Positions 1,211-32,200 of a DNA stretch of 36,384 bases are shown one piece after another. The stretch is from Raillietiella orientalis. Lineage: Eukaryota. Made by a program: the position numbers and the translations under genes. How positions within the stretch are numbered: position 1 is the stretch's first letter; every line of letters starts with the position of its first letter. The stretch spans positions 248,001-284,384 of the forward strand of contig JAYWIR010000088.1 in NCBI GenBank assembly GCA_036172245.1, written 5' to 3'. The notes below the pieces were generated by a model, which ran no database searches, was not told where the DNA came from, and was given only the letters and a program-made list of their open reading frames with translations.

Positions 1211-1212
1211 CC

Positions 1213-2079: not shown

Positions 2080-2295
2080 TTTCTTCCCTTACCCTCCCAA
2101 CTTTTCTTTTCTTTTTTGTTGTGTTTTCTGTTTTTCCCCTTCCCCCTGCTGCCGTGGTGGATCGTACCGGTCTGCGAACCGGTGACCCGGCGGGCTCTGT
2201 GTTTGATCGTGCGTGGCTGGAGCAATGGTCCAGCCACTGCACGTCTTTGTAAATGTTTATTTTACAATAAACGCCCCGGCGAAATCCGTGTGAAA
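2080..2295 (+). promoter_or_regulatory. Structured 3' UTR of A: pyrimidine tract, stem-loops, palindromic poly(A) signal, terminal hairpin
   Basis: Stems at 2149-2193 and 2208-2243, gtttatt/aataaac at 2255-2272, terminal ccccggc-gaaa-tccgtgtgaaa. Homologous blocks occur at five other 3' ends. Confidence 0.75.
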
Positions 2296-4013
2296 ATCGA
2301 ATGCTTTGCGGAAGTCGACAGCGACGGCGAAGGCTCCCGCCGATTCCGCCCCACCCTCTACCGGGTCTCTCTGGTCAGAGAGGTGCTCAAGGCTCTCTTG
2401 ACCGTCCTGTGCAACGCGCTGTTGCAACTGCCACCATGTGCTGGCGAGGAGCACGTTGGCTTCCATGGTTCGCCAGGGAACAGCGTATGTTTGCTCCGGG
2501 CTGATCACGGAATCCGCCACCGGTCCTAAACGCTCAGCCCACAATTTGGCATACAACTTTGCGTCCGCATTCACCACTGTCATGGGGCGCCAGTTGCTAA
2601 TGTTGCGTAAGTCTCCTGACTTCGGCAGGAGACGTACTTTTGCTGATCGGAACGAGGCGGGAACTTGGCCGTGTTCGTGGATCAGCGTACTTAGCCTGAG
2701 CACCAGAGGGGCCAGCTCTGTCGCGAAGTGCTTGTAAAACTCCGCGGGCAGGCCGTCCTCCCCTGGTGCGTTTCTTGTCTTTAATTTACTGATGGCGGAG
2801 ACAATCTCTGCCACCGTAAATGGTTCCGACAACCTGGAACATACTTCCTCCCCGATCGCGGGAGCCCCATCCGGCAGCAACCGCTGCGCGAATTGGCACT
2901 CGGGTGTTAATGGCGCGTACAAGGAGGAATAAAACTCCCGCACGATGCGGCTTACCTGGGCTGGGCTGGAGCGTTCTTGACCCTGATGGTCCAGCAATCA
3001 GGCCGAGCCTGACTGCCAGGCCTGCCTCTCCGCCTCAGCTTTGAATTCCGCCAGGCGACGAACGTCCGGACGTCCGGAATACCGGCGGGCCTGAAGGTAG
3101 GCTCGCTCGTTCCTGACACCTTCTTCGATGCCCGGAGGAAGACGCTCCAGGGGAAACTGTTCGCAAAACTCGCTGACTGAGCACTTCATTTCGTCCCAGT
3201 CCGCGAGCGTCTGAAGATGTAATTCTCGCAGGAAGGCGCGTAGATGTTCCGCCGCTCCTGCGAGGCGCAACCAGTCCCCTGGCAGGCGCCACGTTTTCAG
3301 GGGAGGGCCTTTATTTCGCGGATGTAACTCCAGCACGAGCCGTGGATGTTCGGACAGCTCTGCCGGGAGCGTTCCACGAGTTCCCACCCGCGTGCACAGG
3401 TGGTTGTCGAGGAACATGTGATCGAGGTTCCGATCTCTCCCGGGATCACCGGCCAACAAGTTGCGCGCATTCATTTCTGCGCACAACTCGTTGACCAGCT
3501 GTCCTCGCCTGTGGGGCGCACCTGCTAGCAGGCGGAGATTGAAATCGCCCGCAATGAGGTGCGCCCTCCGTACGCCTGCTTCAGCCAGGCAGTCTCGCCG
3601 CAGGGATTCGAGGAACGCAGTGCGTTCCTCGGCCCCGTGGTTGCTCACTGGCGCGTATATGTTCGTCACAACGAGGTCGATCGATTCGGACCACTTGAGA
3701 ACAAGCTGTCCAACTCGACCGTCCCCGTCGAAGCGAACGCTACGCAGAGAGTTTTCGACTGCCGGCTTCAGCAGAAAGCCACTCCGCAGGAGTAGTCTGT
3801 TCCGTTCGTCCACAGTAGCCGCCCTCCTGTGATTCTTTCGAAATCCTGGCCTGCTTCTGTTGTGAGCACGTGAGTCTCTTGCAGTAGGGCCAGGTCGAAG
3901 TCTCGCAGAATGGCGGCTACGTCTCGCCTCTTCCCGTCGCTGCTCAACCCGTTGACGTTCCAACAGGTTATTCGCAAGCGGCTAGAGGAGGCGAGTCCAC
4001 GCAATGGTGTTGT
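2296..4013 (-). pseudogene. ORF2 of B: APE endonuclease plus RT N-terminal part (frameshift near 3780, stop at 3000-2998)
   Basis: Motifs WNVNG, LLQETH, NIYAP, GDFN, LDH, SEH, then APGEDG, LLPKSGD, WRPMTVVNADAKL, DFRKAFD. Confidence 0.92.
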
Positions 4014-5752
4014 TATGGTGAAGTGGAAGAAACCGCCTCCTGTTCAGAAGACGGGTGGTCCGGGTCCATGTCGTTGGAGTGTTCAGGAGCATCGCTCACT
4101 CCGTCGGCCGTGGACTGTGTTAACAGTTGGTAAAGGATGCTCTCAGGCACGGAGTCGCATTGTGCAACGCACATGGACTCTTCCTCGCTGTCAGATGCCA
4201 TTTCGACCTCTTCCTGAGAGGTGACAGCACGCCTACGAGCACCTGTTGCATTTTTATATTTTCTTTTCGGCAAGCCAACGGAGGGCGAGTTCCCGCTTTC
4301 GGCGTCAGACTCGGAGGTTTCCGGGTCTTTTGCCGTAGCCGGACGTCGAACGGCCTTCTTCTCGGCCTTGACGGGCTGCCTCAGGAAGGCAGCCAACTCT
4401 TCCGCGGCTTGCGCGAAGTTTGCATCAGAGATGCGTTCCACGTCATCACGGATTTCGTCGCCTGTTGGCGAGTCGGGTGACGTAACAACCGATTCGATAG
4501 CGGCAACTGGCGCGCTATCGTTCGGAACCGCAGCGGCTGAGCTTTCGCTCGCCACTACAACGCTTCCAGTGGACTGGACTGGAACAATAGATTCGATCGC
4601 GGCAACGTGTGCCGCGCTTTCGATCGCGACCGTAGCGATTTCGCCGTACGAAGCCGGAACCGCTTTATCGATCGACCCCGCGGGTGCGGTATCGATCGAT
4701 GGTTTGCTTGTGGAAGCCTTCGCGCGAACGCGATCGATGTGCAGGGTGGAACGGCGGACGGTTTTTGCCACCATTTTCACCGTTTTCTTGGGGACCTTAC
4801 CTTTCCCTTTGCTCTCCTTTTTCACCAACTGCCAACTGTTTTCGGCGACAGTTTCGCCTTCCTCCGGTTTTTGTTCCACTGGCGTCGATATCTCGCCTGT
4901 CTGGGAGGTTTCACTCGATTGGGGATCCTGTTTTTCCGGATCCTGTGGCGACTCTGTTCTCTTGTTGCCAACAGGAGTGGAAGCAAAACGAAGAGGGCAC
5001 ACGTTTCTTACGTGGCCCTTGTTACCGCAGCGTAGACACACGATGTTGGGGCACCTCCGTTTAAGGTGCCCTGTAGTCTCGCAGTTTCCGCAAAATTTGG
5101 GTTTCCCTATGTACCACAGATCGATGTATTCTTCATCGACCTGAAGTCGGTGGGGTAAATTACTATCTTCGCGGACTGTCACACGCGTGGCGGCATAGCC
5201 ACTGAACGCCCTAGTATAGCCCAGGGTGTTCGGCTTAGCCCACAGAGCGTGGACGGTCCCGTACTTTTCCAGTTCCTGCCTAACGGCATTTTTCGCCATT
5301 CGCATCGTCAACCCGGTCAGGTGGATGACGATCGATTTGTCGGCAGTAAACGGGAAGATCCTTCTCCCGTTCACGGTCACCGGGCATCTCAGCAACTGCT
5401 GAGTCATTCTTGCAGTTCTGCAGTTCAGCTCGACTAGCTGACCGCCACTGCGAATGGAAAGGCCGAGAACTTCTTTCGGCACTTTCAGTTTTTTAAATTC
5501 CGCGGCAAACGTTCTCAACATCGCGGGAGAATAAAGCCCACCTACCTTATACAGTAGGGCCGGGTAGTATCCGTGGGACTCATAGGCCCGCTGTTCCTCG
5601 CATGGTGGCGGCGCGGGAGCCGCCACCACCGCACTGCCAGCCCTCGCCGGGGCGGGGGACGAATCTGTAGGGGAGATGGCCCCCACATCCATGGGCTGAG
5701 GGGACGAGGCACGCCCGTAAACCTTTTCCGCACTGGCGGTGTCCTCAGGCAT
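4013..5752 (-). CDS. ORF1 of B, open reading frame intact
   Basis: The first ATG (MPEDTA) matches paralog starts. Knuckles CGNCETTGHLKRRC and CLRCGNKGHVRNVC, low-complexity acidic C-terminus, TAA at 4015-4013. Confidence 0.88.
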   Translation of the reverse strand: MPEDTASAEKVYGRASSPQPMDVGAISPTDSSPAPARAGSAVVAAPAPPPCEEQRAYESHGYYPALLYKVGGLYSPAMLRTFAAEFKKLKVPKEVLGLSIRSGGQLVELNCRTARMTQQLLRCPVTVNGRRIFPFTADKSIVIHLTGLTMRMAKNAVRQELEKYGTVHALWAKPNTLGYTRAFSGYAATRVTVREDSNLPHRLQVDEEYIDLWYIGKPKFCGNCETTGHLKRRCPNIVCLRCGNKGHVRNVCPLRFASTPVGNKRTESPQDPEKQDPQSSETSQTGEISTPVEQKPEEGETVAENSWQLVKKESKGKGKVPKKTVKMVAKTVRRSTLHIDRVRAKASTSKPSIDTAPAGSIDKAVPASYGEIATVAIESAAHVAAIESIVPVQSTGSVVVASESSAAAVPNDSAPVAAIESVVTSPDSPTGDEIRDDVERISDANFAQAAEELAAFLRQPVKAEKKAVRRPATAKDPETSESDAESGNSPSVGLPKRKYKNATGARRRAVTSQEEVEMASDSEEESMCVAQCDSVPESILYQLLTQSTADGVSDAPEHSNDMDPDHPSSEQEAVSSTSP

Positions 5753-5847
5753 TTCTGCCTTGAAAACACCGCCCAAACACCACACAACCTACAAAATCGC
5801 GCTCAAATGCAGGAGCAGCAAAAAAAACACGTCTGCCGTCACTGCGG

Positions 5848-6630
5848 TTTTCACCCGGATATGCCGGGGCATTTATTTCGAAAAATAAAAATACATTAAT
5901 TTTTCCAGTGGAGAACCCGAAGGCGCACCATGCCAAAACAGCTTGCTGGTTGCCGGCGCTAGGCCGGAGAGGTCCTTCCCATGCGCGGGGATGGGAAATA
6001 AAGAAAAACAAAGAAACAAAAAGTTCAAATGTTCAAATGCGAACGCCTCGAGTGCAACAATGATGTCGCGGTCCGTGATTCTCGGTCGAATGACCGAGTG
6101 CTGGACCACGAAAGATTGGTCCTGGACCCAGGGGATGGCCTCCTTACCCCTTATTTTCAGGGGGGTTCGCAGTAGGCGCTGGACGAGGGCTGCATCCTTG
6201 CAGTGCACCTCCCAATGGCCTACCGCCTTTACTGGCATAAGCGCTAGGAGATCGTCCTTTCGGACCCCAACGCGTTCCAGCTCGCTCCAGAGCTGGTGGC
6301 TCGTCCCATCCCGGTACGCAGCACTGACCTTGTAGGCCATTGGGGCGTTGTAGCCACTCACGGCGTACGCCCGCAGCTCTGCCTTGTCGGGTGGGGCTCA
6401 GTGAGCCGCCGCTGCCTTAGCAACGGCGGCAAAACTTCTCGATGGAGGCGAGGGACTATCGGTGGAGGCTTCCACTCCTCCCGAAGATCCTGCGACGCAG
6501 CGGGATTCCTCCACCTCCATTTCTGCGGACACTGGCTTCATTTTCAAATAAAAAATCGCACCACACCCAAAACGAACAGCCGCAAAGATGCATTAAAGAC
6601 GGAGCGCAAGAATGCACGTCCGAAAAATGA
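5848..6630 (-). mobile_element. Element C: about 780 bp non-autonomous deletion derivative with both termini
   Basis: 5' end tcatttttcggacgtg. ORF1 N-terminal remnant at 6541 to about 6040 (GYNAPMAYKV...VQRLLRTPL) joins directly to a T-rich 3' UTR, AATAAA and terminal hairpin cccgg-catat-ccgggtgaaaa. Confidence 0.85.
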
Positions 6631-6922
6631 AGGGGGTCGGCTGTACTGGCAATGCGGCCTCCGCAACACCTGCGCGGTCGCGTTCTTCGTCAAGCCAGCC
6701 ATCGTCACTGCCGTGAAGGGTGCACTCTTTGAGGACGACAGTCGGGTCGACCAGCTGATTGTCAGGTGGTCCGACTCGATCGATCTGATCGTCACAAACG
6801 TGTATGCCTCCAGCGGCAGACAGGGCTACAGCTAACGAACCAGGTTGCTGGAAACCCTGAAACGCGACTAGCTACGGAAATCAGCGTGCGAAAGGCTCAC
6901 CTGATAGCGGAAGATTTCAATC
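6631..6922 (+). pseudogene. Fragment D: isolated endonuclease-domain segment
   Basis: GGRLYWQCGLRNTCAVAFFVKP...NVYAS...HLIAEDFN, homologous to 26262-26555 and 34860-35150. Confidence 0.88.
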
Positions 6923-6999
6923 GAGTGCGGACGTGTTTTCCTTCGCTCTCGCCTCCGTGCTTTCATCCGCTTCATCTTGGCGTCGTACATTTTGACGAC

Positions 7000-8921
7000 G
7001 ATATCGACCCAACCCGAAGCAACTAAAGTTGGAGGAACAGCATCCGGATCTGAATCGCGGAACCGACGGCCGCCCCCACTACGTCTTTCTCGCGAATGGA
7101 GAGGAGTTTTGCTGACGTTGCTGCCACAGCAGCCGTCAAAGGGAAACCACTCGACGAGTCGGAGTTGCGGGCATAAGTAGCCCAAGGCTATAGACCTGCT
7201 CTCCGATATAAGGTGAGTGGTTTTCTTTCTGCGCTCGACGGGAATCAGTTCAACGATGAACTGACCCGTGTTGGCGTGCGGGAGGAGGACCTCCTCGCCA
7301 TTATGCCCGTAAAGGATATGGGCTATTTCAAGGTGCGTTGCAAAGACGCTGCACTTGTGCAGAGCTTGCTGCGCACCCCGTTGTCGATCCGTGGCCAGAA
7401 GGTCTTCCCGGCCGCCATGGACGACTCATTTGTGGCGGAGATTTTCGACATCGAGTCGGAAATCTCCGATATTGATATTCGGAACGCGTTGGCGAAATTC
7501 GCCACGGTCCATGCGCTGTGGAGGGTGCGTAGCAACCTCAAGGACTTCCCGTCCATACACAGCGGAGTCGCTGGAGTCCGGCTTAAAATGCCGGACCGCC
7601 GTCTGCTGCCCACCAAACTACAGGTGAAAGACACGGTCGTTCACCTGTGGTTCGTGGGCAAAGTAAGAACGCGCGAGCAATGCGGAAAGGAGGGGCATTG
7701 TTTGGATAAATGCCCCTCTGGAAAATGCCGTTATTGCAAACTATCGGGACACCAATTGAAAAATTGCCCGGATCTTTTGCGAAAAAAGGCAGCCGCGAAG
7801 CTCCATTTTAAAAAACAAAGCGCGGATAAAAAGAAAAAATCAGGGAAAAACCTGGAGACCTCACGGCAGAAATTCCGAAAAAACGCGAGGCGGAATGTCG
7901 CCCCAAAGCAGCAGCAAACCTCGCAAGCGAAGCCCTGAGCGCCCTCTCTCTTGGCAGGGGAGCCGCAAAAGAAAGGGTGCGGGGAATCTGGGGCAATAAT
8001 AAGTCCCCCTAGGCGCAATAGCTGTCTTTCCCAAGCCCGCTCGGCTCTCTCGGAGTTCGAGCAGCCGGCGGGGACGCCAATGGACAACGGCGGTAAGGAC
8101 ACTTCCAGTACCGTCAGATCCATTCCTTCACCTCCTGCAGTGGCTGAGAAGCCCAAATCGGGTAAGAAGGGTTGTGCCGTGTCGACTTCGAAAGTCGACA
8201 AAAAAAATCCGCGTCGCGATCCAACACCGCGAAAGCGGAGAAAAATCTCACGCCGTCGCAGTCGGAGAGCAAGCTCTGGACTGGCGCGGATGCCATGCCA
8301 ACGGAGGGATTAAAAGCCCTTCCGAAAGCAGCGTCCATGACGAGCGTGTCGGAGTCATCGAAAGTGCTCCCGTCCAAAGACGCGGATGGCTTCAAAGATG
8401 GCAATGGAGCACAATCTCCATTTACGGCGCCACGCAAAGTGAGGAACCGTAATGAAGTAAAGAAGACTTCAGCAAAGGTCCCTCGGGCAACTGCGCGTGA
8501 GCACGCTGAAAACGCGCGCGCAGGGAAAGCAGCCGTCACCAAAAGCGATGCTCTGGAGACGGAAAAAGACAACAGGACAGCTGTCAATCCAGCAGAACCT
8601 GTCACTGCTTCGCGGAAGGCCGAAACCCGATCGAACATGCGCCGGTCGGACTCCGAAATGGATGCCGTTCCGATCACCGAGACGAGGACAACTCGTTCGA
8701 AAGCGTGTGCGCGCCTATCAAAAGTAGGCAGCGAGGCAACGCTCGCCGCGAAGCAGCGCGAAGTCTCCACGAAACCCGACGGGGTTAAGCCTGGCGTGGA
8801 GGAATTGCATGCATGCAGCACGACGGAGGACGGTGGCAACCGTCATCTCCAGCCAATCGTGCTGCTCGCCGTCTGCTCGCCGGATAAAGCGAGCAAAAAG
8901 CCGCCACCTTCCCAGCAGTAA
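7000..8921 (+). pseudogene. ORF1 of E1 (disrupted; start approximate)
   Basis: ORF 7213..7938 is clearly similar to ORF1 of A. Knuckle CRYCKLSGHQLKNC. Internal stops and frameshifts. Confidence 0.82.
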
Positions 8922-10636
8922 TGCGGGGAATCGCGTCTTCTCGTCGTCTGTCCGTAACGTGTTGGAACGTGAACGGACTACAGAACGACGAGAAGGGGCG
9001 ATTAGTAGCCAACGCCCTGCGCCCCTTCGACCTCGCGCTCCTGCAGGAGATTCACGTAATCTCCGACGTGAAGGCAGCCGAAATCGAGGAGCGCGCAGGG
9101 GAAACGCTACATTGGCGGTGCGGCGGCGCACACACGTGCGGCGTCGCGTTCATCGTAAGATGAAAAATGGCGGAAGCGGTGCGTAGTGTTCGTTTCGATG
9201 ACGACGAACGGATAGGCCAGCATGTCATCAAGTGGTCCGAGTCTATCGATCTCATCGTTACGAACGTCTACGCGCCGTGTGGCTCTCGCTACCTCGAAGA
9301 AAGAGTAGCTTTCTTTGGTGAGGTGCAGAGCCACTGGCTCAACAACTCCGGCTTCCAAGTGGCGCACCTCGTCGCTGGGGACTTCAACGTCCGCCTGCTG
9401 TCCGACGATTGGAGCCGCCCGAGGGAGCGCGCGCTGCCCATCGAGATGTGCGCGTCCGTGCACGCCGCCAACTTGATGGTCAGCGAACCTGGAATGGAAA
9501 GATCTCTCGATCACGTTTTCCTCGATGGAAACCTGCATTCGCGTGTGGGTAGCAGAGGAAGATTGTTGACTAGGCTTTCCGACCACCACAGGTTGGAGTT
9601 TGGGATCCTTCCGCCAGGCAGGGGGCCTCCGTTGCAAAACTGGAGGATACAGGTGGATTGGCATAGCCAACCGGAGGCTGCGGAGCATCTACGTGGATAC
9701 CTCCGAGGCTTTGCCATTCAAGAACTTGCGGACTGGGACGATCTGAAAAGATCTGTCCGCGAGTTCTGCTGCCAATTCCCCTTGCACCGGCTTCCACGCG
9801 GTTTCGGAGAGGGCGTGGCCAACAGCAGAGACTTTCTGCAGGCCCGCACGTTTTCGAGACGCGCGGATGTCGGGCGTCTCGCGGAGTACAAGGCGAGAGC
9901 CGAGCGCCAGGTCTGGCAGTCCGGAGCAGCATTCCTGTTCGACGACAAGGACCAGGAATGTTCGGCCCCAGCCGAAGTACGCCGCATTGTGAGACTCTAC
10001 TACTCCTCGCTTTACGCGGAATCCCCGACGGAGGATATTCTCTCTGAGATACTCCTGTCTCAGGATGCTGGTGTTGTCGGCGAGGAGGAACGCGAACGTC
10101 TGAACGAGCCCTTCACGGCGGATGAATTTTAGTCCGCCATCGCTGGGCTGAAGAGACGAAAGGCGCCAGGCGAGGATGGGCTCCCTGCAGAGTTTGATCA
10201 GTGCTTTGCAGTGGAGCTCATTCCCTTGATGCTGAGACTCGCGACGCTGATGAGTGAATCCGGGAATGTCCCGGATTCCTTCCGCTCAGCGAAGGTGCGT
10301 CTCCTGCCGAAAGGCGGAGACTTGCGTCAACTTAACAACTGGCGTCTGATCACCTTGGTGAACTCGGACATCAAGTTGATTTCCAAGCTGTGGGTCGCGC
10401 GGTTAGAAAGTATCGCGGAATCTGTGGTGAGCCTGGAACAAACCTACGCGGCTCCGGGACGATCCATGGAGGCGAACATCCTTTTCGCGCGTACATGTAT
10501 GCAGCTGCAGGAAGTTGTTGCGCAGCAAAGACAGGCTGCTGCGAAAGTCACTGCCGCATGCAAGAACAGGCGCCGACGGCAGGAGGGAACGCCAGGTGCC
10601 TTGGCGCTCGCGGTCGATCTCCACAAGGCGTTCGAT
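8921..10636 (+). pseudogene. ORF2 of E1, endonuclease plus RT N-terminal part (in-frame stops at 9161 and 10130)
   Basis: Motifs WNVNG, LLQEIH, NVYAP, GDFN, SLDH, SDH, LLPKGGD, DLHKAFD. Confidence 0.92.
10622..10635 (+). repeat. Target-site duplication of E2, left copy (cacaaggcgttcga)
   Basis: Identical 14-mer at 22116-22129. The other paralogous KAFD sites in the window differ at 2 or more positions. Confidence 0.85.
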
Positions 10637-12987
10637 TTTCACCCGGATTTCTCCGGGTCGTTTATTTAAAAAATAAACTTTGTAAACAAATTATTAATGG
10701 CTGTGGCAATGCTCCAGCCAGAAGCTAAGAACCACGGTGCCTGCCAATTCACCGGTTTCTAGACCGATACCGTCCACCAAGGCAGCAGGGGAAAGAAGAA
10801 AAACAAAAACACTAAAGAAAAAAAAAAAAGGGTGGGAGAGAACGGGAAGGGATCACTGTTGCTGCTGGGGCCGCATCATCCTTCTCAGGATGCTGACAAG
10901 CTCTTGTTTGTTGTGAACATCCAGGTGGGGCCATCCCGACGCCCTTCACAGGAATTTGGAGGCGCACTGGATGGCGTTTATATCGCTAGGTCCTCCCGTC
11001 GCCGTGCTCCAGGCGGCGACGATCCCACGAAGGCAGCACAAGTCTGCTATGGAGGACGCTGGCCGCAGGGCGTCGGCAACGAAGAAGGCTTTTAGAGCGT
11101 CCCTGGGGTTGCCGCAAAAAATACCGATGGCCGCGGCAAAGCGGAACCAAAGGGGCCGAAGGGCAACACAATCCACTAGGAGGTGGGGGAAGGACTCCCG
11201 TTCCCCACACCTGACGCAATTGGGGTCCACCGCTCCCCAGGTCCAGTTGTGTCGGCGGCCGTTGCAGGGGAGTCCCCAGTGCTGCAACAGGAGAGCCGAC
11301 TCCTGCCATTTTAAGGGGAGGGCGGAAGTGTTCATGAGCACCGGGGGCCACTTCAGATGTTCAATGGGAACATCGAGCAGCACGCCCCAGCGCAGAAGTC
11401 CATTGGGAGGCGTACTCGGGGTTTCAGCGTCTGTTAACTGCCCCGTCTTCCACTCTCCTATCTTCTTCTCCTTTCCGGAGATTGTTACTGTAATCACCCA
11501 CTTCGCCGCAGCATCGCTGTCCAGATCTTCCATCAGGGAAGGCAGCGCAGCAGCGAGGGGGGTTCTTCCTGCCACGCTCTCTTCTTTGGATCCTCCAGGA
11601 TCTCGCGGAGCATGCAACTTCTGTAACCCCCAAACAGGAACCTTCGTTCCTGTTTGCCGCGTTGCATGCCGAACTGTCCCCACGTTCGAACGGTTTACGG
11701 CAACCAGGCACTACCGTTCAACGGGCGACAGGTGAACAATCCTGGGTTTTTCGGATACAGCGCAGCCACCCTCCGTAGCTGGAGTCCGCATCGGTTGACG
11801 CGGCGACGGAGTGCAAGAAACGACGTCAGTCCCGTCTTGCCGGTGGCTTGCTGGAGTAGGAGACGTGCAGGGACGCACCAACAGGTGCACCACAACTCTG
11901 GAACGAGTGCCGACAAGCGGAACTGGAGCTGAAGCTCCAGCCGCTCCAGCGTCAGGAGGCCCAGACCACCATCCCGACGAGGAGCGCACAAGTCCTTTAA
12001 GCGGACTCGGGCCCTAACGTTGCCTCAAGGGGCGATACGGAGAAGGTCCTTCGTCCGCTTTTTGATCCTCTCTGTAAGGGGGCAAAAAAAAATGCAGGGA
12101 GCGGAGGAGAGGAGCCGCGAACGTGTTGCAAACCGCGGCCCGTTCAGGCAGGGAAAACCTGCCGCCTCGGAACGGGCCGATAGCCGTCTCTACTTTTTGG
12201 AGGCAGCCGGACCACGCTTCCGCAGGGGAGTAGTCCCCCAACGGCACACCAAGGTACTTGAAGTACCTCACCGTGGGGATCCATAAACGGACCCAGTCCT
12301 GCTGCCCTGCCCACGCCGCACCAACTGGCATCACGGACGACTTCGCCCTGTTCACCGTGAGTCCGGTTCCCCGATGCAGCAGGTCGAAGAACTCCTCGAC
12401 CGCCGCAGCCCGGGTGGACATAGGGTGCAGCAGCAAAAGGTCGTCCGCGTATGCTGAAACGGCCGGCGTACCGGCACAGTCGTGCGGCAGGTGCGCCAGA
12501 GTTCCCCTGTACGCTCTCAGTACCAACTCAAAGTAGGTACTGAAGAGCAAGGGGTCCAGGCTGTCTCCCTGCCGGATACCAGGTCGCACCGGCACGCCGT
12601 GCACGGTCTGCCCGCTGAAAGTAACTTCGATGATCGCGTCGCTCCAGCAGGAGCGCAGATAGGCCACTAATGAGGACGGGAAGCCCAAGCGTTCGAGAAG
12701 CTCCAGAAGGAGATTCTGGTCGACGCAATCGAATGCTTTCTGCAAGTCGATTGCGACCGCAAGGGCTCCCTTCCCCACCCGTCCATCCAACCCCCTGCCG
12801 GCGCACGCATTGGAATTCCGGCTGCGCACCAAGCTCCTTTCTTGTTGGAGCTCTAGCCAGGCGGATGCGTGGAACAGGTTCGCCTCCATGCTTCGCCCGG
12901 GAACAGCATAAGTCTGTTCCCGGCTGATGAAGATGTTGGCAACCCTTCCCAGACGCTCTGCCCAAACCTTAGCCAGCAACTTGGCGT
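10636..12987 (-). mobile_element. Element E2, 3' half (RT core, C-terminus, 3' UTR)
   Basis: AKLLAKVWAERL, DLQKAFD, GIRQGDSL, AYADDL, KYLGV, CVRCGERESFPHLLVDC, stop at 10855-10853. Terminal hairpin acccgga-gaaa-tccgggt. Confidence 0.92.
12973..12987 (+). repeat. Target-site duplication of E3, left copy (ccagcaacttggcgt)
   Basis: 14/15 match to ccagcaacctggcgt at 18884-18898, directly flanking both termini of E3. Confidence 0.8.
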
Positions 12988-13156
12988 GCGGACGTGTTTT
13001 TGTAGCGCTCCTGCGCGCCTGGTGTAAAGCGTTTGGTTTCTTTTGTGTATGTGTGTGGAGAATCTGCGGTGTCCAATGGCAGAAATACCTGAGGACACCG
13101 CGATGGATATAGGAGGGGGAGAGGCTTGCCCCTCTCCCCAACCCACGGGGGTGGGG

Positions 13157-13348
13157 GCAACCGCCCCCACGGAGGCGACGGCAGCCGCACCCCTGAAAAA
13201 GGGGGCAACCGTCGCCTCGGTAGCAAGGGCAAAGGCCCCCTTGAAAAAGGGGGCAAAAGCCCCCCTGGAACAGGGTGCAACCGCCCCCTTGAAAAAGGGG
13301 ACAACCGCAACCGTGGAAACTGGCGCAATTGTTTACTTGAAAAAGGGG
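13157..13348 (+). repeat. Coding 24-bp tandem repeat, 8 units (ATAPLKKG-like)
   Basis: Consensus gcaaccgcccccttgaaaaagggg. Confidence 0.88.
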
Positions 13349-14778: not shown

Positions 14779-15008
14779 CCCGATGGAGGAGGGGGATAAG
14801 GTGAGTGATTGCCGCCCCCACCCAACGGTGGAATCTGTCCAGGAGATAGCCATGGAGGAGGGGGAGCAGACAGCTGACAACCGCTCCCCCCTGCCGTCCA
14901 ACGCAGCCGACGAATCGGCCCCCATGGAAGAGGGGGAGCAGGTGCGTGGAACCCGCCCCCTTCAACCGTTGCGGTCCGCCGAGGAAGCGGCCCCCATGGA
15001 GGAGGGAG
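14779..15008 (+). repeat. Four spaced (P)MEEG acidic repeats at the ORF1 C-terminus
   Basis: atggaRgaggg recurs about every 70 nt. Also seen at 25845-25993, 31126-31355 and 34442-34590. Confidence 0.8.
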
Positions 15009-22021: not shown

Positions 22022-22115
22022 CGCTGCCTGATCGACCAACGAACCACACGACGCTTGCACTGGGGAAGACTTCTTGGCACGAGGAGCATCGAGAGAACAC
22101 GTTCGCCCTAGAGCG

Positions 22116-24221
22116 CACAAGGCGTTCGACTGTGTAGAACAGGAACTCCTCTTGGAGCTCCTGGTTCGCATGAGCTTCCCACCCTCCCTGATTTGCTACC
22201 TGCGCTCTTGGTTGCGGAATGCGATAACTATCGTCTCCTTCAACGGTCACAAGGTGCATGGCGTGCCGGTGGGGCGGGGCATAAGGCAGGGAGATAGTCT
22301 CAGCCCCCTGCTCTTCAGCACCTACTTTGAGTTGGTGCTGAGAGCGTAAAGGGTGACTCTGGCCCCATTGCCGAGCTCGTTCCCCGGCACGCCCGCCGTT
22401 GCAGCGTACGCCGACGATCTTCTGCTCTTGTTGCCAATATCCACCCCGGCAAAGGCTGTCGGAGATTTCTTCGATCTGCTCAGCCGCGGGACCGGACTGC
22501 AGGTTAACCGGGCGAAGTCGTCGCTTGTGCCAATAGGCGCGGCGAGGCCAGGGCAGCAGGACTGGGTCCGTCTGGGGATCCCCACGGCGAGGTGCTTCAA
22601 GTACCTTGGTGTGCCGTCGGGGGACTACTCCCCTGCGGAAGCATGGTCCAGCTGCCTCCAAAAAGTCGAGACGGCGATCGGACCGTTCCTGTAAGGCAAG
22701 TTTCACTTGCCGGAACGGGCCGCGGTTTGGAACGCCTTCACGGCCCTCATCCTCCACCCCTTGCTTTTTGTTTGCCCCGCCCCAGGAGTAGTTAAAAAGA
22801 GGACGAAGGACCTCCTCCGCATCGCCCTTTGGGGCAAAAGGAGGCCCCGAGTCCCTCTGAAGGACTTGTGCGCTCCGCGTCTGGACGGCGGTCTTGGCCT
22901 CCTGACGCTGGAGCGCGTGAAGAAGCAGCTGCGGTGGCGAACCTTCGCCATCGCAGCGAAGATGTGGAGCACCCCTTGGTGCACTCCGGCCCGTCTCCTG
23001 GCCAGCCGTGTATCCCGGTGCGATGGACTCGCGTCTTTTCTTCTGAGCCGTGGCCGGAAGTTGCGAAGATGCGGCCTACTGCTCGGGCGCATGGCAACAT
23101 TGGCCAAGGAGAACAGCTGGATGGTTTGCTGCCCCGCCAACTCCCCCGCCTGGCTGGAGGAGAATATTGGAACGTGGGTAGTGGTTAACCAGAGAAGCTA
23201 GGAGACGTGGAATCGTCTCCGATGCAGCCCCTACTCCCGCTGCACGCTGCGGAATCTCCTGGAGAGTCCAGCAAGATGCACGTGGGCAGAGACGACCTGC
23301 CTAGCTACGGCGCTGCCCTTCCTGAGGAGGGCACTTCACAGCAGCCGGACGCCAAGGTGGCAAGTCTCCTGCTGCATCGAGGGACGCGAGAAGTTGATCA
23401 GCGGCTGGACAACAGGAGAACTGGCCGACGCCACGACCCCGAGCGTCCAGCCGCGAGAATTATTAAGATGGGGCGAGCTGCTCACCATCCCCAGGGATGA
23501 GCTGAAGTGGCCCCCGGTGATGAAGGAATCCAGGATCCTGCCCCTCAAGTGGCAAGAGTCGGCGTAGCTTTTGTTGCACTGGGGTCTACCCTGCAACGCG
23601 CGCCGCTTCCACTGGACGATAGGAACTGTGGATCCTGCATGTGCCAGGTGCGGGGAGCGGGAGTCTCTCCCCCACCTTATTGTGGATTGTGCTGCCCTCC
23701 GACCCCTTTGGGAACGTTTCGAGACGACCCTCGGGCTCCCTACGGGGAGCACCCCTAGAGACGTTCTTCGGCCCCTTTTCGTGAAGGACGCACTGCAGCC
23801 AGCCGCAGACATCGCAGCCTTGTGCTGTGTCCGTGGAATCGTGGCGGCATGGAGGGACGTTAATAAAGAAGGAGTGGGTCCACAGGCGAGGGCTGTCATC
23901 CCGTATACCCAACGCTTCTTGCGAAGAGCTGCCGGATGGCCCCAACTAGGAGATATGCGGAGAGACCTCGAGGGCTTTCTTCGAAGGATGGGCCCTCCTC
24001 ACAGCGACCAGTGATCCCTACCCTTCCCTGCAAACTCTTTTTGTTTTTTTATTTCTTTATTTTTCTTTTTGTTTTTCCCCTCATCCCCTTGCGCTGTCGG
24101 GGAGTGCCACGCCGGCGGCGTCCCGGTGTCCCGACAGGTCCTGTGTTTACGGCCGTGGTGGGTCCTTGTACCACGCATGTAAAGTTTATTGATAAACGCC
24201 CCGGGCGTACCCGGGTGATAA
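22116..24221 (+). mobile_element. Element E1, 3' half (RT core from HKAFD, C-terminus to stop at 24014, 3' UTR)
   Basis: Begins with the right TSD copy. GIRQGDSLSPLLF, AYADDL, CARCGERESLPHLIVDC. Terminal cccggg-cgta-cccgggtgataa. Pairing with the 5' half rests on the TSD. Confidence 0.85.
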
Positions 24222-24239
24222 CGCCGAATCGCTTGGCGA

Positions 24240-26891
24240 GTGGATGTGTGTTTCCTTCGCTCCCGAGTGAGTCGACAGGAAGCGGTTGTTTCTTTGTGTG
24301 TGTTCGTGTGGAACATCGTTGGTGTTCGATGGCAGCGATGCCTGAGGACGCCACGATGGAGGTAGGTGTGGGGGAGGCTTGCCCACCCCCACATCCTACA
24401 GAATCAGAAGCGTCCGCCCCGGAATCGCCCTCGCCGCCCAAGGCGAGGAACTGGAGCGCCATGGTGGCCGCGCCGAGCGCGAAACCGTGGCCGAGATGGC
24501 GGCCTACCGGGCAGCTAGGTACAAGCACAGCCTGGTGTACCAGGTAGGCAATCTCTTTGACGGGTGAACTGCACGCGCTTTTTCGAAAGCGCTGCAGAAC
24601 GCCAACGTGTTGGAAGAGGATCTTGACGGTCTATCCGTGCTCAGCGGGGGTCAGCACGTCGCGGTTGTCTGCAAGGACATCACCTTGGCGCAAAGCTTGA
24701 TAACCACCCCGCTGAACGTGGACGGACGCAAGATCCTACCAGTCACGATGGACCGCTCCGTAGTGGTTCATCTGACAGGGATCACCAGCCGCATGACGCG
24801 GTCTGCGGTTGGTGATCAGTTAAGAAAGTATGGAGATGTTCACGCGGTATGGCCAAAGGCCACAATCTTCGATGGCTACGATAGCCTTTTCGGAGGGCAG
24901 GCCGCCGCGCGCGTGACGGTGAAGGAGAGTGGGCTTCCCCACAAACTAGAGGTCAATGGCGAAGTCGTAGACCTCTGGTACGTGGGGAAACCCCGCTTTT
25001 GTGGCTACTGCAATGCAGTAGGACACTTGCGCAAGCGGTGCCCGAACATTGTGTGCCACTTATGCGGGGAGAAGGGCCACGTACGCCGCGTATGCCCTAA
25101 ACGCCCCACTCCGGTGCCGCCTGCTGCAAAGAAAGCACAGGCAAAACGCGATGAACTGGTGGAAAGACCAAAAAGAGATACTGGCCGGCAGCAGCCGCTA
25201 GCCCCTGTTCCTCCCACACAGGCGTCGGAAGAAAAACCCTCCGAAGACGCGGGAGTCCAAGACGGCTGGCAGCTGGTCAAGGCCAGGAAGGAGAAAAAAA
25301 TGCCCCCCGCGGAACCCGCGAAAGCGGTAAAAAAGACAGCCGGCAAGGCAAAAAAACCTGGGCCGCGCTCCAAGACCATGCGGGAGTGTACGGTAGCACT
25401 GATGCGCATAGCCGTTCCCGAGATTGCCACCCGGGGCGACGAGCCTTCCCTCGCCGTTTCCGGGGAGCCCGAGGTTCGCGAAGGCGAACCCTCTGTTTAC
25501 ACAGAGGGTGAGCCCCGCGAAATAGCGGCGGTCGAAGCCGCGGACGCCGCGTTCGCGCAGGCGGCCGAGGAGCTCGCGGTCACTCTGGCCGAGCGTGGGA
25601 ACCCCTCGCGCAAGGCAGTGCGAAAGCTGGCTCCGCCCAAGAAGGCCCACGCAGGTGAGTTCGACCTGGAAGCCGGAAGTGCATCCTCCTCCTCGGAGGC
25701 ACCCCCCAGGAAGTCGGGACGCAATTCCCAGAAACCCAGGAGGCGCCTCCCCTCCACGAGCGAGGAGGAGAAGCAGGAAGCTAGCGGTAGCGTGGGAATC
25801 CCGGAGGGGGAACTCCCACGCTCGGAAGCCGTCGAGCCGGCCACCCCCATGGAGGAGGGTGAGCAGGAGGGCGAAGTCCTCCCTGCAGTCGCAGAGCCTA
25901 AACAGCCCGCCCCCATGTAGGAGGGCCAACAGGTAGGCGCGACCCCACCTGAGGGTGACCCGCTCGACGCGCCGTTACCCATGGAGAAGGGGGACCAGGT
26001 GCAAGCTTCGCCTGACTCTCCTCCTCCACCTAGCGTCCCGCCCCAACAGGCGGCGGACGCCGCATCGCCATCTTCGCAGGAGTAACAGCTGGGCTCGCCA
26101 GTCGCCGTCGGATTCGCGCCGCCTGTTGGGACGTCAACGGGCTGCGCGACGACGGTAACAGGCGAGATACGGCCGACACCCTGCGTGAGCTCGACCTTTC
26201 CCTGCTGTAGGAGATCCACGTGATCACCGCGGCAGACGTCCAGGAGATCGAGACGATCGCGGGGGGTCGGTTGTATTGGCGAAGCGGCCTCCGCAACACC
26301 TGCGGGGTCGCGTTCTTCGTGAAGCCGGCCATCGGCGCTGCCGTGAAGGGCGTGCGCTTCGATGACGACGGTCGTATCGGCCAGATGATTCTCAGCTGTT
26401 CCGAATCGATCGATCTGATCATCACGAATGTGTACGCCCCCAGAGGCAAAAAGGCTCATCTCGATTGTACCAATTTGCTGGATTCCCTGAAGCGCGACTG
26501 GCTGGCGGAAACAAACGTGCGAAAGGCTCACCTAATAGCTGGAGACTTCATTCTCCGCCTGGTAACAGGTGAGCCTGAAACACAAGAGAACGCGATGAAC
26601 GAGTTGTGCGCCGCCATGCGGGCGCGCAACTTGTTCGCGGGTGAGAGGGAAATGATCCGCAGTATCGACCACGTCTTCCTTGACGCTGACCTGTGTTCAC
26701 GGGACGGCACACGAGGGAGATTGCGTCGACGCTGTAGGACCATTCCCCGCTAATTTTCGAGATGCCACCTCGAGACAAGCGACCGCCATCTAGGGAGTGT
26801 AGTATGCCGGGGGACTAAACGCGACTCTCAGGTGCGAAGGAACACCTTCGCGAATTACTGAGAGGCGTCACGCTCCAGAGTCTCTCTTCAA
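24240..26891 (+). mobile_element. Element F: 5' part (ORF1 24329-26085, endonuclease 26085-26891), decayed
   Basis: 5' gtggatgtgtgttt. Knuckles CGYCNAVGHLRKRC and CHLCGEKGHVRRVC, motifs NVYAP, GDF, SIDH. Ends at the (WD)LFK-coding ctcttcaa. Confidence 0.9.
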
Positions 26892-29232
26892 ACCCGGTAC
26901 GCCGTGACGTTTATTTGTTCAAATAAACTCATATAAACTGTGAATGGACCAGTAGTCCAGCCACGCCCTGGAAACATTCAACCTGCCGGGCTACCGGTGC
27001 ACAGACCGGCGCGGTCGACCTCGGCAGCAGAGGAAAGAAGGAATCAAAGAAAAACAAAACAAAAAAATAAACAAAACCGGGGAGAGAGCGAAAAGGGATC
27101 ACTGTCTGCTGGGAGGGTCCGTCATCCTATGGAGGATGCCGGCAAGCTCTCGCTGAATGGTGGGTTCCAGATGGGGCCATCGCGTCGCTATCCTCAGGAA
27201 ACGGGCCGCGTACACGGTGGCGTCCCTGTCGCTGGACCCTCCCGTCGCTTTGTTCCAGGCCACGACGATCCCGCGTAGTCAGCACAGGGCTGCAAGCGAG
27301 GCCGCCGGAGGCAGAGCATCACGGACGAAGAGGGGGTGCAAAGCGTCTCTGGGGTTGCCTCCGGGGATCCCCAGGACGGCGGCAAAGCGTTCCCACGAGG
27401 GACGGAGGGCAACACATTCCACTAGCAGGTGGGGGAGGTATTTTCTCTCCCCGCACCTGACACAATTGGGGTTGAGACCCCCCGCGTCCAGTGATGTCGG
27501 CGGGCATTGCAGGGGAGGCCCCAATGCAACCCCAGGAGTGCCGACTGTTGCCACTTCATGGAGAGGGTGCGCGAGTCCATGAGCACCGGGGGCCACTCCA
27601 GATGTTCCTCCGGAACATCCAGTAGCTCGCCCCAGCGCAAGAGTCCGTGTGGGGTGGTACTCGGGGTCCCAGCGTTGGTGAGCTGACCCGTTCTCCAATC
27701 TCCGATCTTCTTTGCCCTGCTGGCGATCTTGACAGTAAGCTCCCATTGTGCCGCGACGTCGCTGCCCAGATGTTCCCGTAGGGTAGGCAGTACCGCAGCA
27801 AGGGAGGTTCTTTGTGCCCACGCTCTCCTTCGGGGATTCTCGATGATTTCTCGGAGCGTGCGGCGGGCATGCGGCCCGAGCAGAGCTATTCGCTCGTGTT
27901 GCGGGCTCTGCTCCTGAATCATCGCCCACGTGCGGACGGTTTCCTGCAACCAGGCAGGACGGTTCGCGGGGCGTACGAGGATCCGCGCCGAGTTGTTCTT
28001 CACGAGCTTGGCCGCCCTTCGAAGTTGAAGTCCGCAGTGGCAGATGGGGCTTCGAAGTGCAAAGTAGGACGAGAGTCCCGCATTGCCGGTGGGCCGCTCG
28101 ACGAGGAGACGTGCAGGGAGGCACCAAGGGGTGCACCAATTTTCTGCCATAAAGGCAGCAACTCAGAACTGGAGCTGTAGCTCCAGCCGCTCCAACGTCA
28201 GGAGGCCCAGACCACCATCCCGACGAGGAGCGCACAAGTCCGAAATACGGAATCGGGGCCTCCCTCTGCCCCAAAGGGCGATCCTCAGGAGGTCCTTTGT
28301 CCGCTTTTTAATCCTCTCTGTGGGGGGGAAAACAAAAAGCAGGGGGCGGAAGAGAGGAGCCGCGAACGTGTTCCAAACCGCAGCCCGTTCAGGCAGGAAA
28401 AACCTGCCGCCTCGAAACGGGCCGATCGCCGTCTCTACTTTTTGAAGGCAGCCGGACCACGCTTCCGCAGGGGAGTAGTCCCCCAACGGAACACCAAGGT
28501 ACTTGAAGTACCTCACCGTGGGGATCCCCAAACGGACCCAGTCCTGCTGCCCTGCCCACGCCGCTCCGACTGGCATTACGGACGACTTCGCCCTGTTCAC
28601 CGTCAGTTCTGTTCCCCGACTCAGCAGGTCGAAGAACTCCTCGACCGCCGCAGCCTAAGTGGACATAGGCAGCAGCAGCAGAAGGTCGTCCGCGTACGCC
28701 AAAACCGCAGGCCTACCGGGGCAATCGCACGGCAGGTGCGCCAGAGTCTCCCTATACGCTCTCAGCACCAATTCGAAAAAGGCGCTAAAGAGCAGGGGGC
28801 TCAGGCTGTCTCCCTGCCGTATGCCGCGTCGCACCGGTACTCCGTGCACGATTTGCCCGCTGAAAAGAACATTAATGAGCGCGTCGCGCCAGCTGGAGCG
28901 CAGGTAGGCCAACAAAGAGGCCGGGAAGCCCAAGCGTTCCAGAAGCTCCAGCAGGAGATTCTGGTCGACGCTGTCGAATGCTTTGCGCAAGTCGACAGCG
29001 ACCGCAAGGGCTCCCTTCCCCACCCGACCGTTCCGTCTCCCGCCAACGGACGCACCGAAATTCCGGCTGCTCAATAAGCTTCTTCCTTTTCGGAGCTCTA
29101 ACCATGTGGAAGCGTGGAACAGGTTCGCCTTCATGCTCCGCCCGGGACCAGCATAAGTCTGTTCCGGGCTGATGAAGATGTTGGCAACCCGTCCCAGATG
29201 CTCTGCCCACATCTTGGCTATCAACTTGGCGT
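26892..29232 (-). mobile_element. Element G: 3' half (RT from DAKL, C-terminus to stop at 27101-27099, 3' UTR)
   Basis: AKLIAKMWAEHL, DLRKAFD, GIRQGDSLSPLLF, AYADDL, CVRCGERKYLPHLLVEC. AATAAA and a degenerate terminal hairpin. Confidence 0.92.
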
Positions 29233-32200
29233 GCGGACGTGTTTTTTCCGCGCTCCTCTGCGCCTGTTGTAAAGCGTTCTTTTTCGGTAGTGCTTGTGTG
29301 TGGAGCATCTGCGGTGTCCAATGGCAGAAATGCCTGAGGATACCGCGATGGAAGTCGGCGGGGGAGAGGATTGCTCCTCTCCCCAACCTATTGAGGTGGG
29401 AGCAACCGCCCCCACGGAGGAGAGAGCAACCGCTCCCTTGAAAAAGGGGGCAACCGCCTCTCCGTAAACGAGGGCTACTGCCACCTTGAAAAAGGGAGCA
29501 ACCGTCCTCGTGCAAAAGGCCGCAACCGCCCCCTTGAAAAAGGGGACAACCGCCGCCTTGGAAAAGGCCGCAACCGCCCCCTTGAAAAAGGGGACAACCG
29601 CCGCCTTGGAAAAGGCCGCAACCGCCCCCTTGAAAAAGGGGACAACCGCTGCCTCGGAAAAGGGCGGAAACGCCTCCTTGAAAGAGGGGGCAACCGCGTC
29701 CTTGGATCCACCTGCTCCATTAACGAAGACCTGGAGCTCCGTGGCTGCAGCGCCATCTCCTGCTGCCTTAGCAGAACAACGGGCCTACCGGGAACAAGGA
29801 TACAAGCCGTCCTTGATTTACAAGGTAGGAAACCTGTTTATAGGGAACACCGCTCGTAACTTTGAAAGGGAGTTACAGCGGTTGGATGTTAAAGAGGAAG
29901 ACCTGGAAGGTCTCTCCGTGAAGAGTGGGGGCCAGCGGGTGGAGCTGACGTGCAAAAATGCAAGTCTGGCTCAACGCCTGCTGAACACTCCCATCACTCT
30001 GGAAGGCCGAAAGATCTTCCCTGTAACGGAGGACCGCTCCATTGTTGCCCACCTTACGGGAGTAACTCTTCGCATGACCAAAGCTGGCGTGCAGGAAGAG
30101 TTACAAAAACATTGTACGGTGCACGCGCTCTGGACCAAGCCCAACGCCTTCCAAACATACGGAAGACTGTTAAGTGGCATGGCTGCAGCGCGTTTGACGG
30201 TCCACGAAAACGGTGGGCTGCCTCACAAACTCGACGTCGACAACGAGGTCGTCGACGTCTGGTACGTGGGCAAGTCCAAGTACTGTGGGCACTGTGATGC
30301 AACAGGACACCTGAAAAAACGGTGCCCCCACATCCAGTGCTTCCACTGCGGCAAAAAGGGCCACTTGCGGAAGGTGTGTTTTAAACGCGAAACCCCGGCT
30401 CCCCCTGCTTTGAAAAAAGCCAAAGGGAAACGCGCGGGGCGATCGGACAAGCCTAAGGAGGCACCCGAGAGGCGGAACCCACAGCCAGAGCCCGAACCCG
30501 TGCAGCAAGCGCCGGTCAAGGGTACTCCCGACGACGCTGGAGAGAGCGAGGGCTGGCATAAGGGGAAGCATAAAAGTAAAAAATTAAAGAAAACCGAAGA
30601 ACCGACAGCGGAACCCGCGACATCTTCTTTAAATAGGAGACAACGCCGCGCGCTGCTCCGCGAATGTTCGGTCGCTTTGGAGCGAGTGGAGATCCCCGAG
30701 ACCTCCACCGGGGGAGATATCTCCCGCCTTGTTGACGCCGAAGCCGCAATCAAAAAAGGCGAACCCTCTGTGCAAACAGAGGGGGAGCCGAGCGACGCGC
30801 TCACCGCAATCGAGGATGCCGCTTACCAGCAGGCGGCGGAAGAGCTCGCGGCCGAAATCGCAAAGCGTGAGAACGGCGCGCGAAAGGCCTTGCGAAGGCC
30901 GGCCGCGAGCAAGGCACCTCGGACAGGTGAACACGAACCGGATGCCGGAAGTGCGTCCTCGTCCGCATAGGCGCCTCCCTAGAAGACTGGACGGAAGTCC
31001 AAGAATCCCAAGAGGCGCATCCCGACAAAGAAGGAGGGGGACGCACCGGCATCCGAGGGGGAAGCCGGCAGCGTGGGAACGGAGGGAGGGATTTTCCCAC
31101 CCTCCGCTACCGAGCAGCTGGAGACCCCGATGGAGGAGGGGGATAAGGTGAGTGATTGCCGCCCCCTCCCAACGGTGGAACCTGTCCAAGAGATAGCCAT
31201 GGAGGAGGGGGAGCAGACAGCTGACAACCGCTCCCCCCTGCCGTCCAACGCAGCCGACGAATCGGCCCCCATGGAAGAGGGGGAGCAGGTGCGTGGAACC
31301 CGCCCCCTTCAACCTTTGCGGTTCGCCGAGGAAGCGGCCCCCATGGAGGAGGGAGAACCGGTGCGCGGTGATCCCGTTCCTCCATCCGTCTCGCCCGACC
31401 AGGTGGCGGGAGCCCCATTGCCACTTTCCCAGGAGTAACACCTGGGCTCGCCTGTCGCCGTCGATTAGGCGTGGCCTGCTGGAACGTGAACGGGCTGCGC
31501 GACGACGGCAACAGACAAGACACGGCCGCGACCCTGCGTGACTTCGACCTGGCACTCCTGCAGGAGATCCACGTGATCACCGCGGAGAACGCCCAGGAGA
31601 TCGAAAGGATCGCAGGGGGACGGTTGATGTGGCAATGCGGCACCAGATACACCTGCGGCGTCGCGTTTTTTATGAAGCCGGCAGTCGACGCAGCCGTGAA
31701 GGGCGTGCGCTTCGACGAAGCCGGTCGTGTCGGCCAGCTGATTCTCAGGTGGACCGACACGATCGACCTCGTCGCAACAAATGTGTACGCTCCGAGCGGT
31801 CCTACCAGGTACCAGGAACGTAAGGCGTTCCTAAAAACCCTGAAGCGCGACTGGCTGGCGGAAGCGAACGTGCGCGTGGCTCACCTGATAGCGGGAGACT
31901 TTAATCTCCGCCTGCTATCAGGTTAGTCACACACACAGGAACGGACGGCTAACGAGTTGTGCGCCGCCATGCGCACGCGCAACTTGTTAGGGGATCTTTC
32001 GGAAATGGTCAGCAGCATCGACCACGTCTTCCTGGATGTCGACCTGTGTTCACGGGTCGGCAAACGGGGGAAAGTTGCGTCGGAGCTGTCTGACCATTTC
32101 CGGTTGATATTCGAGGTGTGCCCGCGCGACAAGGGCTCCCCATCCAGGACGTGGCGTCTGCCTGGGGACTAGACGCGACTCTCAGGTGCGAAGGAACACC

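Follow-up and report, generated by a model that had tools for sequence, protein, structure and literature searches.

Long interspersed nuclear elements (LINEs; non-LTR retrotransposons) that insert at specific sites are known to use rRNA, snRNA or tRNA genes, telomeres, microsatellites or a DNA transposon as targets, and Tx1L uses another transposon, Tx1D. In addition, several green algae have centromeres marked by clusters of LINEs that nest in themselves. Both kinds of behaviour are already known, and the locus described here is a variant of both. It is a stretch of 36,384 nt from Raillietiella orientalis (assembly GCA_036172245.1, contig JAYWIR010000088.1, positions 248,001 to 284,384; hereafter the window, with positions counted from its first letter), a nested and tandem pile-up of at least four diverged L1-like LINE families. 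Complete element ends recur in it at two short motifs, KAFD and DAKL, on the antisense strand of the reverse transcriptase (RT) genes of related elements. Site-specific antisense homing into the RT codons of relatives is well supported within this one window, and we consider it likely that at least two LINE lineages use target-primed reverse transcription to enter fixed DNA sequences within the RT genes of other copies.

The closest described clusters are those of Zepp from Chlorella and Coccomyxa and of ZeppL from Chlamydomonas, which, in the parts of the sources drawn on here, are L1-like LINEs in nested clusters formed via insertion into existing copies: Zepp "targets existing copies" (PMC8226300) and in Coccomyxa each chromosome contains one cluster of nested Zepp copies (PMC3446292). 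Furthermore, Chlorella centromeres contain several L1 families (PMC11005252). Zepp and the window are both GC-rich, 61% in Zepp and 55-65% (0.55-0.65) along the whole length of the window. However, Zepp and L1-1_CR have 3' ends of the (A)n type (PMC3747384, Table 3), whereas the 3' ends in the window, compared by description, are hairpins without poly(A); Zepp/ZeppL arrays are described as mostly 5'-truncated 3' ends, whereas most inserts in the window keep a complete 5' end; and the window mixes several diverged families, unlike Zepp/ZeppL clusters. The Zepp/ZeppL literature, as far as our partial coverage of it extends, describes no nucleotide-level target inside an RT gene. More generally, nucleotide-exact antisense targeting of RT-coding motifs was not found described in the literature, in a coverage that was partial and did not extend to the original Zepp papers, where a prior description is possible.

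Among target-specific LINEs, the Tx group has been described as such (PMC3747384), and the window shares with R1, TRAS/SART, Tx1L and Keno/Mutsu the use of one nucleotide and one orientation, a constant target site duplication (TSD) and many full-length copies, and with target-specific APE LINEs the tandem arrays with a target-length spacer. In contrast to these, the target in the window is RT-coding DNA of the same superfamily, carried by the inserting element itself, and two sister lineages use two sites in one gene. Arrays built by preferred insertion into own copies are also indicated, in the passages cited, for CNL1 of Cryptococcus, with "precise sequence specificity undefined" (PMC12810828), and for DIRS-1 of Dictyostelium, which targets itself "without apparent sequence preference" (PMC5633606). 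According to the same passages, CNL1 is R2-like and telomere-associated and DIRS-1 is a tyrosine-recombinase element, whereas the elements in the window are APE/L1-like and use exact positions.

Results

A first-pass annotation of this DNA had claimed eight junctions between an element terminus and an oppositely oriented relative, six of them at two sites. All eight are present, and the positions of the six stand (KAFD at 2296, 10636 and 22116; DAKL at 12987, 18884 and 29232), but they do not represent six events. At the KAFD site, the 3' end of the plus-strand element A (...CCGTGTGAAA; terminus AATAAACGCCCCGGCGAAATCCGTGTGAAA) meets antisense ...AAAGCATTCGAT of the minus-strand element C at 2295|2296, where the second open reading frame (ORF2) of C ends exactly past its KAFD codons. 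At 10636|10637 a plus-strand ORF2 ending ...AAGGCGTTCGAT (N-left) meets the inverted 3' end of element M (...CCGGGTGAAA), and at 22115|22116 the 5' end of M meets a plus-strand ORF2 starting ACAAGGCGTTCGAC (N-right). The junctions at 2295|2296 and 10636|10637 lie at the same nucleotide of KAFD (GAAA|ATCGAA), the antisense strand reading ...GTGAAA|ATCGAATGC in A and ...GTGAAA|ATCGAACGCC in the 3' half of M (M-left), and the 5' end of the other half (M-right) meets GTCGAACGCCTTGT at KAFD. The flanks of M form a 14-bp TSD with 13 of 14 positions identical, ACAAGGCGTTCGAT at the end of N-left (10623-10636) and ACAAGGCGTTCGAC at the start of N-right (22116-22129), and a single insertion of M probably accounts for both 10636 and 22116. 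A conservative count thus gives two or three independent KAFD events, A into C and M into N, the higher number applying if N-left and N-right are different hosts. Occupied KAFD sites make up three of the six in the window, and the intact KAFD DNA of M-left is identical to the occupied site of C.

At the DAKL site, antisense ...AACTTGGCGT is joined to the 5' end GCGGACGTG of two plus-strand elements, P at 12987|12988 and P' at 29232|29233, and the 3' end of P (...CCGGGTGGCAAC) is joined to CAGCAACCTGGCGT at 18884|18885. The flanks of P are also a 14-bp TSD identical at 13 of 14 positions, CAGCAACTTGGCGT in M-left (12974-12987) and CAGCAACCTGGCGT in M-right (18885-18898); a single event, the antisense insertion of P within M, produced both 12987 and 18884. 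Both elements with two flanks in the window, P and M, therefore show the same TSD length of 14 bp (n=2), although at DAKL three nucleotides (CGT) can be attributed to either host or element, so that the stagger there is 11-14 bp. A further DAKL-type junction pair, missing from the first-pass annotation, lies at 24217-24240, where the 3' end of N-right is followed by a 17-nt spacer (GCCGAATCGCTTGGCGA, 24223-24239) and by the 5' end of element R. The spacer ends in ...GCTTGGCGA, and its ...CTTGGCG is the 5' flank common to P and P'; it may be read, by this likeness, as the remnant of an antisense DAKL target after two successive insertions at one site. Independent DAKL events, conservatively counted, number three to four (P into M, P' into the M-like element M', R plus N-right into the remnant), and three of the eight DAKL sites in the window are occupied. 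Junctions and TSDs together bear out the proposal of nucleotide-precise, orientation-fixed insertion at two antisense RT-motif sites.

The ends of the elements are related across families. The 5' ends are homologous, (CG[T/A]G)(T)GCGGACGTGTTTT, and all six 3' ends share the form AATAAAYGCCCCGG-N4-5-CCGGGTG followed by a tail of 3-5 nt, with no poly(A); a CCCGG/CCGGG stem folds in four of the six. The tails are GAAA(A) on A, M-left and X and (G/A)(C/T)AAC on P and N-right. We also observed that the conserved 5' terminus GCGGACG (12988, 29233, 6927) is the same as sense-strand RT sequence, GCGGACG(CC), in the (N)ADA codons just upstream of the DAKL target (e.g. 18905-18888), so that the 5' end of P is the reverse complement of the host sequence expected past the junction.

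The site followed the type of inserting element, as had been suggested, in what is a small sample: an M/A-type module is found at three of three KAFD junctions and P-group termini at five of five DAKL junctions (Fisher test by hand, P = 1/56 for junctions and about 0.1 for events). Within the window, two of four M/A-type 3' ends and four of five P-group elements are on site. The P group comprises P, P', Q, R and N-right (74-96% nt identity); P' and P are 95-96% identical in APE/RT and 75-86% in the 5' untranslated region (UTR) and ORF1, and M' is 79-84% identical to M-left in the RT but only 71% in the C-terminal/3' module. The C-terminal/3' module of A is 90% identical in nucleotides to that of M-left, whereas its ORF1 is 49-57% identical in amino acids to those of N-left and X and 32-33% to that of M-right. 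The same 3' module thus stands on ORF1s of different clades, which indicates that modules have been exchanged between lineages. Along the M/P composites (10637-16700 versus 26892-33050) identity was 63-77%, then 82-94%, then 75-86% and then 94-98%. This mosaic identity and the module swap point, on comparison of the copies, to frequent recombination or template switching among LINE families.

The other two of the eight antisense junctions lie elsewhere, at 26891|26892, where the 3' end of M' meets the antisense APE-RT linker of R, and at 6631|6632, where the 5' end of X meets a plus-strand APE fragment beginning at GGRLYW. Additionally, three sense junctions had not been listed: at 6922-6926 (N-left 5' end at AEDFN), at 32945 (Q at IISPE of P') and at about 1218, the last within the continuing ORF1 frame of an N-clade element. 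The statement that no terminus falls in an ORF1 accordingly holds for the eight antisense junctions but not overall. GGRLYW was considered as a recurrent site and not counted, because a joint in a related sequencing run (18879 to 20182), located 14 nt upstream of GGRL, is not compatible with a 14-bp TSD at the GGRLYW junction of the window. The 10-nt spacer between X and C, CCGCAGTGAC, was likewise discarded: it matches an antisense APE 10-mer at nine of ten positions, and about two such matches are expected by chance (hand arithmetic).

The map of the window was built from tblastn with pieces of P, the one full-length element, and from self-blastn. From left to right, it starts with A (105-2295, plus strand), in which an ORF1 of the N clade occupies 105 to about 1217 and an ORF2 C-terminal/3' module follows in sense from about 1218. 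A consists of ORF1 and the last ~1.1 kb, and both A and X lack the endonuclease and the RT core; by this structure they look like non-autonomous derivatives mobilised in trans. C (2296-5837, minus) is a singleton family with 5' end GGCAGACGTG, ORF1 at 5788-4013 and an ORF2 with APE and RT. X (5848-6631, minus), whose 3' end is 10 nt away from the 5' end of C, is an internally deleted element of 784 bp with a 5' UTR, an N-clade ORF1 fragment, a hairpin 3' end and a GAAAA tail, and its 5' end adjoins antisense GGRLYW. Between this end and the sense 5' end of N-left lies a P-group APE remnant from GGRLYW to AEDFN (6632-6922, plus). N-left (6923-10636, plus) runs from its 5' end, (CGAGT)GCGGACGTG, through ORF1 and APE to the RT as far as KAFD.

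M-left (10637-12987, minus) is the 3' half of M and extends from its DAKL codons as far as the hairpin 3' end, which has the tail GAAA. P (12988-18884, plus) has a 5' UTR, ORF1, APE, RT, a zf-RVT-like C-terminus and a hairpin 3' end with tail GCAAC. M-right (18885-22115, minus), the 5' half of M, contains the 5' UTR, ORF1, APE and RT as far as DAKL, and its 5' end adjoins the KAFD of N-right (22116-24222, plus), which begins at the KAFD codons of a P-group-like RT and finishes in a hairpin 3' end tailed ATAAC. Past the 17-nt spacer, R (24240-26891, plus; P group) has a 5' UTR, ORF1 and APE and is interrupted in the APE-RT linker, in the (WD)LFK region, by the 3' end of M' (26892-29232, minus), a 3' half from DAKL to the 3' end. 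P' (29233-32945, plus) extends from the 5' UTR to the RT, its 5' end at the antisense DAKL of M', and is interrupted at IISPE by Q (32946-36384, plus), a P-group element that lacks about 105 nt at its 5' end, is joined in sense and in frame to the RT of P' and continues past the window end. The nesting order is P in M in N, and M' in R. An open frame of 609 codons (32854-34683, plus) fuses the P' RT fragment (RPITIVNTDAKL...IISPE) in frame to the ORF1 of Q, and this sense junction at 32945 shows microhomology of a few nucleotides. The N-terminal part of ORF1 contains a 24/48-nt tandem repeat in P (13153-13308) and P' (29398-29704), with 5.4 and 12.8 copies of the 24-mer, respectively.

Six-frame ORFs and Pfam searches showed a repeat unit made of an ORF1 with two CCHC knuckles and an ORF2 with APE, RT and a zf-RVT-like C-terminus. 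The APE endonuclease domain (PF03372) was found in three of three ORF2 N-terminal pieces at 46-47 bits (cut-off 24.5) and the RT (PF00078) at 77.5 bits, while zf-CCHC in ORF1 (19-20 bits versus a curated cut-off of 20.8) and zf-RVT at the ORF2 C-terminus (23.6 versus 27.5) stayed below their thresholds with motifs visible by eye. Human L1 ORF2p was the closest solved structure for both the RT piece (E 8e-36, with R2 at E 1e-15 or weaker) and the endonuclease piece (E about 1e-4), and in the alignment to it NTDANL stands opposite L1 NIDAKI and HKAFD opposite L1 EKAFD, in the motif A region. This LINE lineage is nearly missing from public protein sets: one protein had 68% identity and all others at most 30%, the best named being Chara braunii RTs (24-26%), and among 1.84 billion protein representatives two matches, both unnamed, reached E<=1e-30 (HMMER). 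An Rfam search found no ribozyme and no other RNA family.

Lastly, one public sequencing run shares words with the window (share 0.11), and since 487 of its 752 aligned pieces are less than 90% alike, it comes from a relative. The figures for this run rest on the joints listed, which are part of all its joints and loose ends and do not amount to a census. Among them, one contig joins 12916 to 18888, as expected of an M-like element without P (an empty site), and others switch from N-left-like to P-like sequence near KAFD (10476 to 16761), according to which N may be one mosaic family. A contig of 3755 nt covers 6893-10635 at about 97% and stops 7 nt past the KAFD junction. The summed contig depth of the run was 520 in the bin 10679-11275, compared with 4-53 in other bins, with A-rich loose ends at 10791-10829; this peak is probably a low-complexity A/T stretch common to unrelated repeats.

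Discussion

The arrangement of the junctions suggests a mechanism in which elements with the GAAA-tail 3' module (A, M) would enter the antisense strand of (H/R)KAFD codons, in the RT motif A region, and P-group elements (P, P', R and, by its 3' end, N-right) the antisense strand of DAKL codons. Nicks would be staggered by about 14 bp at both sites, in a fixed orientation, and the target could be read by the APE endonuclease, by a short stretch of base pairing between the nicked target and the RNA 3' tail, or by both. Because every new copy carries fresh KAFD and DAKL sites, the target would renew itself and clusters would grow as inserts bring new targets, with unequal exchange or template switching later reshuffling flanks and modules. 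The antisense orientation would follow from the target being fixed and asymmetric; in addition, sense insertions between related sequences may be more easily lost by recombination.

A more elaborate reading is that the endonuclease/RNA systems of sister lineages each home to a different conserved block of RT-motif codons on the antisense strand of other LINEs, that each insertion inactivates the resident RT and plants a new target, and that near-synonymous changes at its own site let a lineage escape. The two DAKL hosts that are occupied have exactly GCCAAGTTG, and all five unoccupied copies, including three from the P group, differ from it by at least one nucleotide. We regard this reading as doubtful, and an adaptive story around the targeting is not supported. 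The first-pass annotation had seen the targets as the least mutable DNA of competitors, but when 14-nt windows are ordered by nucleotide conservation among four families, KAFD takes rank 161 of 1421 and DAKL rank 589 of 1421 (626 of 1409 with five families), and the most conserved 14-nt windows encode WNVNGL, LQEIHV and PGEDGL. Nor is the idea of a cross-family attack that disables competitors supported, since one of the hosts at KAFD, N-left, is of the same ORF1 clade (A/N-left/X) as the 3' module inserted there. Given this N-clade-type 3' module in N-left and the identity between the intact KAFD of M-left and the occupied site of C, targeting of self is equally likely as targeting of rivals.

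Alternatively, a read-through transcript or the short 3' tail could anneal to the target and prime reverse transcription at nicks made by a relaxed endonuclease. Read-through 3' sequence has been reported to help precise insertion of R1/R2, and in the window tail type and site correspond: A and M-left, at ATCGAA..., end in GAAA(A), and P and N-right in (G/A)(C/T)AAC; moreover, the tail of P, GCAAC, recurs inside the P TSD, and use of the KAFD site goes along with the 3' module although A has no endonuclease and is of another ORF1 clade than M. However, the complementarity is of 3-5 nt only, X has a GAAAA tail and yet is off KAFD, and the stagger, constant at 14 bp in the TSDs, suggests that the two nicks are defined. 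Pairing as the main determinant is therefore rather unlikely in our view.

A further explanation would be descent, in which nested insertion happened by chance once or twice, segmental duplication or unequal exchange multiplied the result, and the recurrence reflects no choice of target. Large composite repeats do span the junctions (10761-16597 versus 27003-32945, 83.7%; 1220-4003 versus the reverse complement of 8922-11714, 71.9%), identity close to the DAKL junction is alike on both sides (84-86%), and the ZeppL centromere clusters of Chlamydomonas are reported, in the passage cited, to change by unequal exchange (PMC9977147). At KAFD this is largely refuted by the synonymous divergence (dS): the hosts C and N-left differ by a dS of 1.99-2.25 (ratio of nonsynonymous to synonymous divergence, dN/dS, 0.16-0.18; 59-62% nt identity), that is about 2, and the inserts A and M-left by 0.26 (90% nt identity), which makes a single duplicated unit impossible. 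At DAKL, the identity between the M/P and M'/P' composites swings from 63% to 98% over 250-column windows in a mosaic fashion, and R has the same 5' flank beside an unrelated upstream neighbour. Furthermore, ten of ten comparisons of host or insert segments rejected neutral divergence (ratio of nonsynonymous to synonymous difference proportions, pN/pS, 0.20-0.50; binomial P from 0.027 to 3e-15), and this under-representation of non-synonymous changes indicates that the copies diverged as active elements under selection before landing here. The dS contrast and the ten non-neutral comparisons are not what is expected if all junctions came from one event by segmental duplication, the outcome named beforehand as fatal to site-specific insertion. 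We hold descent from one or two insertions to be very improbable. By hand arithmetic, each additional independent event would have a chance of about 1 in 12,000 of hitting the same nucleotide in the same orientation within a ~6-kb element. False assembly joins between repeats at conserved motifs are hardly credible at all, since, although the region is highly repetitive and the flank mismatches (N-left/N-right, the two parts of A) could come from collapsed copies, such joins would link same-orientation homologues and not complete termini to antisense codons with TSDs, and an independent run, that of the relative, has both the 3755-nt contig ending at the KAFD junction and the empty-site contig for P.

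Two other structures were rejected. A composite element, with the antisense half of M acquired by P through 5' transduction, is contradicted by the 3' flank of P, which continues M with a TSD, and by R, which has the same 5' flank with 17 nt of target only. Twin-priming inversion has the wrong geometry, the inverted part being the 3' half of the host beside a complete 5' end.

Several observations weigh against site-specific insertion as the general explanation of the window. The outer flanks of N have no TSD, and N-left and N-right differ in similarity to P (57-64% versus 74-82% nt), so that rearrangement or mosaicism must be invoked for N. Apart from X, whose tail was mentioned above, the 3' end of M', which has an M-type RT, lies in the APE-RT linker of R, off KAFD; the 5' ends of N-left and Q are sense junctions elsewhere; and the related run has at least one off-site joint, which links antisense APE, at a point 14 nt upstream of GGRL, with a P-like 3' end. 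Outside the window, 43 metagenome loci matched the 3' hairpin motif in a scan, none of them with tblastn or blastn similarity to the elements, and these are chance hairpins. A protein search with the KAFD read-through peptide (P0028 residues 120-178) gave 16 candidates, none scoring, and a HMMER search of the 1.84 billion representatives with the DAKL-junction ORF, whose junction lies near query residue 266, found no external copy of the junction, with all of the best 150 matches starting at residue 247 or further downstream. Gene conversion from active copies could also imitate the signal of purifying selection, and the sample is one 36-kb window with five to seven independent events altogether.

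In the literature, as far as our partial coverage goes, how self-nesting elements find each other is left open, and the answer from this window would be exact targeting of two RT motifs. Such a target is multicopy, harmless to the host and regenerated by each insertion, and it adds to the targets of site-specific LINEs the catalytic gene of the element superfamily itself. In addition, two closely related natural pairs of endonuclease and 3' end with different 14-bp specificities would be useful for studying how APE LINEs read DNA. If homing coupled to escape were true, it would amount to a transposon arms race over coding DNA and to a self-renewing mechanism able to seed centromere-like LINE clusters.

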